Shown here in pieces: positions 2,931 to 20,601 of a stretch of DNA of 64,000 bases (position 1 is the stretch's first letter; each line of letters opens with the position of its first letter). The stretch lies in the IMG/VR virus record IMGVR_UViG_3300027754_004232, positions 1 to 64,000 of that record. One strand, 5' to 3'. Both the position numbers and the translations under genes were made by a program. The notes below the pieces were generated by a model. That model was not told the DNA's origin and made no database searches. It worked only from the letters and a program-made list of their open reading frames with translations. Source of the DNA: a virus.

Positions 2931-3519
2931 TGAAATTATGTTTAATCAAAGAATACCTAGTTTGCTTGTTGTTGACAACTTTTACAAAGATCCAGATTCT
3001 ATAGTTGGAAAAACAGCAGACTTTAAATTTAAAGAGGAAAACAAGTTCTATAAAGGAAAAAGAACAACTCAATGTTTATTGCCTTATGTAAAAGAAGAAT
3101 TTGAAAAGTTATTGCAAGTAGAGATAGTAGATTGGTTAAATCAACCAATGAATGGCGTTTTTCAAATAACATCTGGAAATGACCCACTAGTATGGCATAG
3201 TGACTCACAAGACTATGCAGCAGCAATATACTTAACGAAAGATGGACCAACTAATGCTGGAACATCATTTTGGAAAGATAAAAAATATGGTTGCAGAAGA
3301 CCGCCAAGTCACCCATTAGAAAACAGAACAGATATAACAGAATCAGAAATATACACGCAGCATAGCCTATTAAATGAAGATAGTTGGGAGTTGGTAGATA
3401 GAGTTGGATCTGTATATAACAGGCTAGTTCTTTGGGATGGTAAAATGATTCATTCTGCTACTATGTATGGCGAATTTCCTAGATTGGTTCATCTATTCTT
3501 TTTTAATGTGAAAAAATAA
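2923..3519 (+). CDS. 2OG-Fe(II) oxygenase (DUF6445-like)
   Basis: VVDNFY.DPD, HxD motif WHSD, IYL...GTSFW, YNRLVLWDG..IHSA, terminal R. Confidence 0.8.
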   Translation: MDNEIMFNQRIPSLLVVDNFYKDPDSIVGKTADFKFKEENKFYKGKRTTQCLLPYVKEEFEKLLQVEIVDWLNQPMNGVFQITSGNDPLVWHSDSQDYAAAIYLTKDGPTNAGTSFWKDKKYGCRRPPSHPLENRTDITESEIYTQHSLLNEDSWELVDRVGSVYNRLVLWDGKMIHSATMYGEFPRLVHLFFFNVKK

Positions 3520-18396: not shown

Positions 18397-19170
18397 ATGT
18401 CTAAAACAATTACACCTGATTGGTCTAATTTTTTAAATAGATTAAATCAAAGCAAGTCATCTGATTTGAATTACGAGAACTTTTTAAATTGGCAAGTAAT
18501 ACGAGATACAATGTTTGTTTGTGATTCAAGTTTTCATTCTATCGAGTTAGAACATTTAAAAAAAACAAATGACTGGCAAAGATGGGAATCTGCAATACAA
18601 GAATCTCCAATTGGAAATCCCAAAAGAAGTAAATTATATCCTACTTCTAGTGAAAACTTAGTGCATCACGCTTATCATCTATCTTTTTTTGAAAACTCCA
18701 CAAAATTAAAGATAAACGAATTTGATACAGTATTAGAATTTGGTGGTGGATACGGAAGTATGTGTAGACTTTTTAGAAATTTAAATTACGATAAAGATTA
18801 TTACATATATGACATACCAGAATTTTTAGATCTTCAAAAAAACTATTTAGACAAATTAAACTTTGATTGTAATTATTTTTCTGGAGATGATTTAAATAAA
18901 TTTAATTTTAAAGGTAAAAAGTTATTTATTGCTACATGGTCATTAAGTGAAAGTCCAAAAGATTTAATTAATGAAACACTAGAAAAAATAAAAAACTTTG
19001 ATGCTTTTTTAATTTGTTTTCATAAAGATTATTCAAATGGGGATAATGTTAAATACTTTAATGATTTTGCACTCAAGAACAAAGAAGTATCTTTTACATT
19101 AACTCCAATATTTTTCTTGTCTGATAGTTACTATTTTATAGGTAAAAAAACAATTGAGGATTCAATATGA
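18397..19170 (+). CDS. Putative sugar O-methyltransferase
   Basis: VLEFGGGYGSMCR, YDIPE...LQKNYL, FIATWSLSE. Confidence 0.75.
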   Translation: MSKTITPDWSNFLNRLNQSKSSDLNYENFLNWQVIRDTMFVCDSSFHSIELEHLKKTNDWQRWESAIQESPIGNPKRSKLYPTSSENLVHHAYHLSFFENSTKLKINEFDTVLEFGGGYGSMCRLFRNLNYDKDYYIYDIPEFLDLQKNYLDKLNFDCNYFSGDDLNKFNFKGKKLFIATWSLSESPKDLINETLEKIKNFDAFLICFHKDYSNGDNVKYFNDFALKNKEVSFTLTPIFFLSDSYYFIGKKTIEDSI

Positions 19171-20057
19171 CAGATAAATCTGAAGGTTTACAATATGGAA
19201 AACCAGACAAGGATGATCCAAGGAAAACTCCAGCAAAACCAGAAGAAAAAAAAGGGGGTTCTAAAAAAAACCCAAAAGACTCTGCAAATAAACCAAATAA
19301 AAGTATAGAGCTATCTAAAGAAACCGAAGATAAAATTAAAGCTTTAATGCAAAAACATAACGATAAAGATTCAGAATTTAAAGCTAACATGGGTCAATTA
19401 AAATCTGTTTTTAGAAGAGGTGCTGGAGCATTTTCTACTAGTCATGCACCAAACATGAATAGAACAGGATGGGGTTTGGCTAGGGTAAGAGCCTTTTTAT
19501 ATTTGCTTCGCAATAAAAGACCATCAAATCCAAATTATAAACAAGATAATGACCTGTTACCAGATGCTCATCCAAAAAGCACAAAAAAATCTTCAGCATC
19601 TTATCTGTACGAAGAAATTGAATATTCTGAATTTTTAAATTCTATTAAAGACATAATAGTTAAAAACAAAGAAAGAACTAAAGCCTTTTTAGATATTGAA
19701 AAGTATTTTACTAAATCTGCTGAAAGCTATGATGCCCCACAGTCAGCAAGAAATAACGCAAGAAAAGTTTTAGAATGGAAAGAAAAATACGGAAAAGAAT
19801 GCAAAGGCATGACTGCTGTTGGTTGGGCAAGAGCTAGAGACTTGGCTGGAAATGCTATGCTGTCTGCCGATACAGTTAAAAGAATGTCTCAATTTAATAG
19901 ACATGGATCTAATTATGAAAAAGCAAAATCTAAACCAGAATATAAAACTAAACCTTGGAGTATTCCAGCAGTGGTTGCATGGTTAGGGTGGGGTGGAACA
20001 TCTGGTATTGAATGGGCAATGAGAACAAGTGAATCTATTTTAAAAAAGAAGAAGTAA
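19167..20057 (+). CDS. Two-domain basic phage protein (DUF5824-like domain plus a second conserved phage domain)
   Basis: LKSVFRRGAGAFSTSH...WGLARVRAF; ARNNARKVLEW...GWARARDLA...TVKRMSQFNRH...WLGWGG. Confidence 0.55.
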   Translation: MTDKSEGLQYGKPDKDDPRKTPAKPEEKKGGSKKNPKDSANKPNKSIELSKETEDKIKALMQKHNDKDSEFKANMGQLKSVFRRGAGAFSTSHAPNMNRTGWGLARVRAFLYLLRNKRPSNPNYKQDNDLLPDAHPKSTKKSSASYLYEEIEYSEFLNSIKDIIVKNKERTKAFLDIEKYFTKSAESYDAPQSARNNARKVLEWKEKYGKECKGMTAVGWARARDLAGNAMLSADTVKRMSQFNRHGSNYEKAKSKPEYKTKPWSIPAVVAWLGWGGTSGIEWAMRTSESILKKKK

Positions 20058-20059
20058 TA

Positions 20060-20251
20060 ATGTTAAATCTAATTCTTTTTTTGTTGTTTGATCAGACTAT
20101 AAGCAAAGAGCAATTTGTTTTAATAGAAAAAGATTCTATTTCATTTTCTAAGCTTATAGATCAATTATCAAAATCAAAACCAAAAATAGCATTACCAGTA
20201 ACCATAAATGCAAACCGAGAAGAATGCTTTACTTGACGGAGAAGAAAATAA
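20060..20251 (+). CDS. Small protein with hydrophobic N-terminus, ending CFT-TGA-RRRK-TAA (candidate CxxU selenoprotein; 58 aa if TGA at 20234-20236 is the stop)
   Basis: Manual translation; TAA at 20249-20251 overlaps the next ATG; GGTC-loop hairpin at 20251-20262. Confidence 0.5.
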
Positions 20252-20601
20252 TGCGGTCGCATAAAAAAATACAAGAAATATTAGAAAAATCAGAAACACT
20301 TAAAAAGTATGATTCTGTTGGTATTTTAACAATAATTATGATCGTTAGTCTTATATTTGAGGGCATAAAAATAATACAGTATTGTAAGTCATCTAAGGTA
20401 ACGGCATTAATAATAAAAAAGGGCGGGCCAATTGTAAGAATGTTTATTAGAAAAAATCTATACAATAAAATAATCAAGGCAAATGTTCCAGAGAATGATG
20501 CTAGAATAATTTCTGACACAATAATTGAGCTTATACAGTCCTTATCTGTAAGCGAAATAATAAATCTTTTAGAGTTAGTTTATGCCGAATCCAAAAGTTA
20601 G
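20251..20601 (+). CDS. Membrane-anchored hypothetical protein
   Basis: TM segment VGILTIIMIVSLIFEGIKII; GGAG RBS. Confidence 0.55.
   Translation: MRSHKKIQEILEKSETLKKYDSVGILTIIMIVSLIFEGIKIIQYCKSSKVTALIIKKGGPIVRMFIRKNLYNKIIKANVPENDARIISDTIIELIQSLSVSEIINLLELVYAESKS

Follow-up and report, generated by a model that had tools for sequence, protein, structure and literature searches.

The two genes at positions 20060-20236 and 20251-20601 of the window, by which is meant the whole stretch of 64,000 nucleotides that was analysed, are real genes and constitute a conserved two-gene cassette of an AT-rich, uncultured lake phage. At the junction between them, a cysteine codon, a UGA codon, the spacing downstream of the UGA and an RNA hairpin containing the second gene's start codon are all under purifying selection. 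A sequence-only reading had proposed that the UGA is decoded as selenocysteine in a small phage selenoprotein. The explanation favoured here, with modest confidence, is that the UGA is an ordinary stop codon lying beside a hairpin that controls the start codon of the partner gene. The elements of the cassette are as follows.

20060..20236, + strand: small gene, 58 codons followed by a TGA stop; homologues occupy the same place in about 60 viral contigs
20225..20227, + strand: invariant Cys codon TGC, position -3 from the stop
20234..20236, + strand: invariant TGA, stop or candidate recoded codon; TGA in 18 of 18 junction sequences from 7 clades
20237..20251, + strand: spacer of 14 nt plus the first base of the ATG, CGG AGA AGA AAA TAA, with the GGAG Shine-Dalgarno (SD) sequence at 20238-20241
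20249..20264, + strand: conserved start-codon hairpin, stem ATGC/GCAT (20251-20254 with 20259-20262), loop GGTC
20251..20601, + strand: partner gene, 116 aa (alignment A1; 67 clusters in a set of 5.8 billion proteins)

The window was taken from an IMG/VR record of 92 kb; the phage is uncultured and its G+C content is about 31%. The search for relatives was anchored on the upstream gene of 296 aa and on the 116-aa partner gene, and showed that about 60 related viral and metagenome contigs from uncultured lake phage carry the same gene arrangement. These contigs were reduced to 18 distinct junction sequences that fall into 7 clades, between which the identity of the partner protein drops to as little as 46%. 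The phage lineage is far from catalogued phages. It has no cultured relatives, and blastn and tblastn searches against cultured phages returned nothing useful.

Several further features of the region were recorded. Seven of the eight large late or structural open reading frames beyond the window (L135 and L136, G000 64001-92193) had no PHROG match at E <= 1e-5. The upstream 296-aa protein (19167-20057 of the window) is a two-part mosaic. Its N-terminal part has a weak DUF5824 match and is found at 60-75% identity in many marine viral contigs, and its C-terminal 110 or so residues have matches in viruses of Salinibacter, Roseobacter, Vibrio and haloarchaea, in regions for head morphogenesis, portal and prohead protease. 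Additionally, two diverged copies of the whole region are present on a single contig of 206 kb (IMGVR_UViG_3300024358_000009, L017 and L021) and likewise on another of 221 kb (3300024509_000007, L024 and L031). Both of these two-copy contigs are graded 'complete' by CheckV, and in both the copies are spaced about 146 kb apart, approximately one genome length of a 141.8-kb relative with terminal repeats. The two-copy contigs may each represent two related phage genomes joined in assembly.

The small gene ends TGC TTT ACT TGA and is followed in frame by CGG AGA AGA AAA TAA, so that an open reading frame of the CxxU type is indeed present where the sequence-only reading had placed it. The encoded protein has a short hydrophobic segment at its N-terminus, a helical central part that is conserved and a linker that varies. 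Alignments showed that its N-terminal half is conserved among relatives, and that the cysteine at -3 is both the only invariant cysteine of the protein and the only invariant residue of the C-terminal half (alignments A3 and A4). The last three residues are CFT, CLT, CFP or CIV, depending on the lineage; the L006 and L028 clades have the form CLT-UGA-WRKK. The cysteine is encoded by both TGT and TGC, which indicates selection on the amino acid itself. When 1.84 billion representative proteins were searched with a profile, 8 clusters of the small protein were recovered, 7 of which end in C-x-x. The remaining cluster, P0008, was seen on 10 contigs and has the sequence C-I-S-G-F-R, in which Gly takes the place of the UGA. 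Its partner protein, P0069, is encoded on the same contig, the longest at 91.5 kb, and begins M-Q-L-H; given this start, the hairpin is probably retained there.

Neither the small protein nor its partner has a Pfam or a PHROG match. AlphaFold modelled the small protein as a helical peptide of low confidence with a disordered C-terminal tail. The earlier suggestion that it is a small exported redox peptide finds no support in such predictions; the hydrophobic N-terminus spans only about 10 residues, and no thioredoxin-like fold is predicted. The partner protein is predicted to be all-helical, with one hydrophobic segment at about residues 22-43 and a GGP motif (AlphaFold pLDDT of 69), and a fold search for it gave no PDB match at E <= 0.001. 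Its invariant Cys45 lies just past the hydrophobic helix. Each of the two proteins thus has exactly one invariant cysteine, at -3 in the small protein and at position 45 in the partner, and the pairing suggests a shared disulfide or metal site. A departure from the usual arrangement was seen in L005 (3187-3330, IMGVR_UViG_3300027486_000462), where a deletion within the small gene shifts the frame. Here the 25 N-terminal residues of the small gene run in frame into the partner gene and the C-x-x-TGA end is bypassed. This contig could be a natural fusion or deletion variant, or it could reflect an assembly error.

The identity of the stop codon was then compared with that of its neighbours. TGA closes the small gene in all 18 distinct junction sequences, while the stops of four of five neighbouring genes change among TAA, TAG and TGA across the same lineages. 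A silent-site baseline was calculated from codons with an invariant amino acid in the five neighbouring genes of 12 representative lineages. The third-position G of the window was invariant in 0 of 53 such codons and the third-position C in 1 of 60. The sequence-only reading had accepted that TAA or TAG at this codon would count against it; neither was found among the homologues with DNA. This phage also uses TGA routinely as a stop: 21 of 81 genes end in it, many of them as ATGA overlaps.

The sequence immediately around the UGA varies. The preceding codon is ACT, ACA, ACC, CCT or GTC, and the following base is C, U or A, depending on the lineage. The in-frame tail after the UGA reads R, K, RRR, RRRK or WRKK according to the clade, with the second stop 1-4 codons on. 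The second stop of the clades L014, L021 and L107 is only one codon past the UGA, well before the hairpin. This tail is read from the purine-rich SD region, and its length and content differ between clades; because the post-UGA codons coincide with the SD region, nothing shows that the tail is translated. An SD core precedes 42% of gene starts as compared with a background of 5%. In the window, the second in-frame stop TAA (20249-20251) overlaps the ATG at 20251-20253 as TAATG, and the TAATG junctions listed earlier at 3519, 5332, 11724, 25648 and 33038 were all located. The coupling of the second stop to the partner gene, which had been offered in support of recoding, is therefore present in the window but is not conserved, since in other clades this stop lies 1-3 codons past the TGA and leaves the ATG untouched. 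Moreover, the caveats that accompanied the original proposal are accurate: the window's stem has 4 bp, four codons follow the TGA, and the GGAG is also the SD sequence of the next gene.

The hairpin ATGC-GGTC-GCAT was confirmed at 20251-20262 with its loop starting 18 nt past the TGA, and the window's version has one additional U-A pair across an A.A mismatch. Over all clades the loop starts 16-18 nt past the TGA, and the spacer between the UGA and the base of the hairpin is 11-12 nt in every clade. The loop has 4 nt, either GGUC or AGUU and always of the form N-G-U-N, with the central G-U constant in all clades. The stem has 4-6 bp and is a clean 6 bp in four clades. The calculated folding energy is -3.0 kcal/mol in the window and in most of the clades, and is -4.9, -5.8, -7.3 and -9.4 kcal/mol, respectively, in the 6-bp clades L019, L107, L014 and L021. 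Relative to shuffled sequences, the window hairpin had a z between about -1.1 and -1.4, and its stability was equalled by 20-31 of 200 shuffles.

The hairpin is the sole consensus structure found by RNAalifold, and it is maintained in the relatives by compensatory changes on both sides of the stem. A C-G pair is replaced by U-A in L019 and L020, the loop-flanking G-C pair is replaced by A-U in L014, and none of the inner five stem pairs is broken. Each genome has a single copy of the 12-mer motif. Of the 67 partner-protein clusters, 36 have RS, 26 have QL and 4 have WS at residues 2-3, the one remaining cluster being an aberrant sequence, and in the sequences with DNA the codon pairs for RS, QL and WS all preserve the stem. 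The compensatory stem changes thus alter partner residues 2-3, with only RS, QL and WS allowed, which indicates that the RNA overrides the protein sequence at the start of the gene. The rarity of two codons at the junction, remarked upon in the sequence-only reading, was also borne out; in the 72 window genes counted, CGG accounts for 3 of 631 Arg codons and TCG for 3.9% of Ser codons, and both are retained at the junction. A conserved RNA hairpin that includes the AUG and is maintained by covariation, as is expected of a start-codon operator, was therefore found.

These observations are probably best explained by an ordinary stop next to a translation-control element. The small gene would be translated to its Cys-x-x end and release factor 2 would terminate at the UGA, as it would for a quarter of the phage's genes. 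The UGA, the SD sequence and the hairpin together would act as a cis-acting translation-control element of the 116-aa partner gene. The hairpin would hold the partner AUG in its 5' arm and present the invariant loop G-U, and it may either throttle initiation or serve as the operator for a protein. That the UGA is an ordinary stop is indicated by the post-UGA tail, which shows no coding-like behaviour (1-4 codons, variable in length and coincident with the SD sequence), as well as by the Gly-Phe-Arg lineage, the L005 bypass variant and the commonplace use of TGA as a stop. That the hairpin is a control element is indicated by the partner start codon inside it and by the occurrence of the motif once per genome. 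From these we infer a stop at the UGA and an action of the hairpin on partner-gene initiation. Start-codon hairpins are classical translational operators in phages, the MS2 replicase operator being one example. As estimated from ribosome footprint sizes, termination at the UGA would leave a ribosome short of the hairpin, and simple coupling by melting therefore fails. No trans-acting factor for the hairpin was identified. The ordinary-stop explanation leaves the requirement for UGA unexplained, as TAA should serve at least equally well.

The selenocysteine proposal was weighed against this explanation. It holds that host SelB binds the hairpin and that selenocysteine is inserted at the UGA, giving a micro-selenoprotein of 47-58 residues that ends in C-x-x-U plus 1-4 basic residues. 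The hairpin would then be a minimal SECIS, with a 4-6-bp stem and a G-U loop, doubling as the initiation region of the next gene. As a single idea it accounts for the UGA, the spacing, the G-U loop and the cysteine at -3, but it fails the standard tests and we regard it as unlikely. In E. coli fdhF, the upper hairpin of 17 nt is 11 nt away from the UGA, and the determinants are the bulged U17 and the loop bases G23 and U24 (PMC8659212). The bSECIS model calls for a loop of 3-9 nt on an upper stem of 4-16 bp, with G among the first two loop bases, a UGA-to-loop distance of 16-37 nt and a free energy no higher than -7.5 kcal/mol (PMC13188914). The invariance of the UGA in 7 clades, while neighbouring stops and silent G sites change freely, counts in favour of the proposal. 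The same is true of the invariant Cys at -3, the fixed distances to the hairpin base and loop in every clade, and the N-G-U-N loop, whose flanking bases covary from G-C to A-U. The spacing and loop agree with the rule in E. coli, where the hairpin is 11 nt from the UGA and both G23 and U24 are essential (PMC8659212), and three of four bSECIS constraints are in agreement (PMC13188914). Considered individually, the loop, stem, G and distance constraints hold in all clades; the energy limit is reached only in L021, with L014 (-7.3 kcal/mol) just short of it.

The discriminating power of this geometry was evaluated on the window itself. When the energy filter is left out, 54% of the window's TGA triplets conform to the bSECIS geometry. 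A narrow, fdhF-like geometry, defined as a 4-nt N-G-U-N loop 16-18 nt past the TGA with at least 4 Watson-Crick pairs, is rare by chance; it was found at 3 of 2292 window TGA triplets, and the small-gene TGA is the only one of these in a coding frame. However, the SECIS-like character that had been claimed for the hairpin extends to its geometry and G-U loop and not to its energy (-3.0 kcal/mol in the window's clade against the limit of -7.5), nor to the bulged U, which is absent in every clade, although SelB of the host may have other requirements. An Rfam cmscan of positions 20000-20400 at E <= 10 returned only a chance FIE3 match on the opposite strand and no SECIS. Furthermore, the variable tail of 1-4 codons is accounted for by the SD sequence, and no redox fold is predicted. 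The main criterion for a selenoprotein is the existence of Sec/Cys homologue pairs (PMC12013277, PMC1976440). The TGA/Cys exchange that the sequence-only reading had named as a check did not turn up: such a pair is absent among the 8 family clusters drawn from 1.84 billion representatives and one lineage, P0008, has Gly at the UGA position.

The decoding machinery was sought in both the phage and its possible hosts. PHROG scans of the structural genes gave nothing bearing on the host. Scans of genome contigs found only three MAG fragments, related to the upstream gene and labelled Ca. Fonsibacter lacus, Alphaproteobacteria and Opitutales, and this MAG-phage link is weak and of the composition type. 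No SelB scored over the family cut-off in the three MAGs or in 151 genomes from the order of the Ca. Fonsibacter MAG, and tRNA-Sec was over its cut-off in 0 of 31. Control genomes established that both the SelB and the tRNA-Sec searches were able to detect their targets. Both absences weigh against selenocysteine insertion to the extent that the weak MAG-phage link allows. The use of SD sequences argues against some candidate hosts. A comparison of the phage tRNA-Met with the tRNAs of the three MAGs gave no useful match, and the Actinomycetia phage DSL-LC01 was set aside as a relative, as it shares only one domain of the upstream gene.

On the phage side, no tRNA was found in the 92-kb record of the window, and the related phage records contain neither a tRNA-Sec nor a suppressor tRNA; the lack of tRNA-Sec in five phage records is a further point against selenocysteine. 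One tRNA-Met (CAT) each was located at G001:C1:1418-1490, G003:C1:6963-7036, G004:C1:11579-11653 and G002:C1:4200-4272, and G002 has two tRNA-Leu (TAA) in addition. Decoding of UGA by the phage itself was rejected, as the related records carry tRNA-Met and tRNA-Leu only. A host using code 4 or code 25 was likewise rejected on account of the 21 of 81 genes that end in TGA and the many ATGA overlaps.

Three other explanations bear on the same observations. The conserved 12-mer might be an inverted repeat acting at the DNA level as the site for a dimeric phage or host protein, with the UGA part of the same site. The half-sites do change together in L019 and L020 (ATGT...ACAT), which is compatible with a palindromic operator, and the motif is unique in the genome. 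However, its centre, GGTC or AGTT, is asymmetric with a G-T that is invariant on one strand, so that an RNA loop is the better fit, and the loop-flanking G-C to A-U covariation is that expected of RNA pairing. Neither a second copy nor a promoter-like context was seen on reading the sequence, and a DNA site is considered improbable. UGA is the leakiest stop, UGA-C is its leakiest context, and phage Qbeta uses UGA read-through. Ribosomes might accordingly pass the UGA at a programmed low level by means of near-cognate Trp-tRNA, reach the second stop, open the hairpin and reinitiate. In the window's clade the second stop forms a TAATG, and a ribosome halted there would cover the hairpin. In L014, L021 and L107, however, the second stop falls too early for this, one codon past the UGA, and the base after the UGA is not fixed. 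Read-through coupling works in the window's clade only, making it quite improbable as an account of the family. Finally, the UGA and the hairpin might be functionless and their association the product of coincidence and shared descent. It is true that the hairpin alone is no more stable than shuffled sequence and that the loose SECIS geometry fits half of the TGA triplets. The silent-site baseline (0 of 53 for G, 1 of 60 for C), the compensatory stem changes and the retention of the very rare CGG and TCG codons nevertheless make coincidence very unlikely, the least credible of the explanations considered.

A number of other candidates were rejected. The ATG at 20224, as the start of an extension of the partner gene or of a frameshift fusion, opens a frame that is closed by a stop in L006 and L028, and the spacing of the two frames differs between clades. 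A +1 frameshift site like that of RF2 is at odds with the variable codon preceding the UGA. Reading of the sequence revealed neither a -10 element at a suitable distance from a potential -35 promoter element (TTGAC) nor the T-run past the stem that a terminator would have. The 12-mer, at one occurrence per genome, is not a repeated regulatory motif, and a longer RNA structure that includes the UGA was discounted, as RNAalifold gave the hairpin alone.

If the selenocysteine proposal were true, the cassette would encode a selenoprotein made by a virus of bacteria, and no description of a phage-encoded selenoprotein was found in the literature searched. It would be among the smallest selenoproteins, with a SECIS overlapping the start of another gene, and a mechanical link would exist between SelB binding, the recoding of the UGA and the start of translation of the partner membrane protein. 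If selenocysteine is not inserted, the identity of a stop codon and a 12-nt start-codon hairpin have been maintained between lineages with only 46% protein identity, and the cassette is a compact and testable translation-control element. The case also serves as a caution that a SECIS-like appearance combined with UGA conservation is insufficient to call a selenoprotein.

The cassette can be compared with three groups of known systems. Thioredoxin reductase (GCUG), SelK and SelS place Sec near a flexible C-terminus, and the phage protein, if it contained Sec, would resemble them: small, hydrophobic at its N-terminus and with a cysteine shortly before a nearly terminal Sec in a disordered tail. 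These proteins differ in being eukaryotic, in having the SECIS in the 3'-UTR and in having conserved residues past the Sec, and the small protein bears no sequence or fold relationship to them. The second comparison is with the E. coli fdhF SECIS. Both have an in-frame UGA, a hairpin base 11-12 nt downstream and a GGUC tetraloop with the invariant G-U, and the 4-bp upper stems resemble each other (UGCA in fdhF, AUGC in the phage). Unlike fdhF, the phage hairpin has neither the bulged U nor a lower helix, and its energy is -3 kcal/mol in the window's clade. It also lies in the start region of the next gene and not in a continuing reading frame, with only 1-4 codons past the UGA, and the phage family has no Cys homologue at the UGA and no known Sec-competent host.

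The replicase operators of MS2 and Qbeta, bound by coat protein, and the T4 RegA and gp32 sites are the third comparison, as translational operator hairpins that contain a start codon. They have nothing that corresponds to the strictly conserved UGA upstream, their loops and stems are unrelated in sequence to those of the phage cassette, and a binding protein is known only for them. What the phage cassette shares with them is a short phage hairpin that contains the AUG of the gene it would regulate, with invariant loop bases and a covarying stem.
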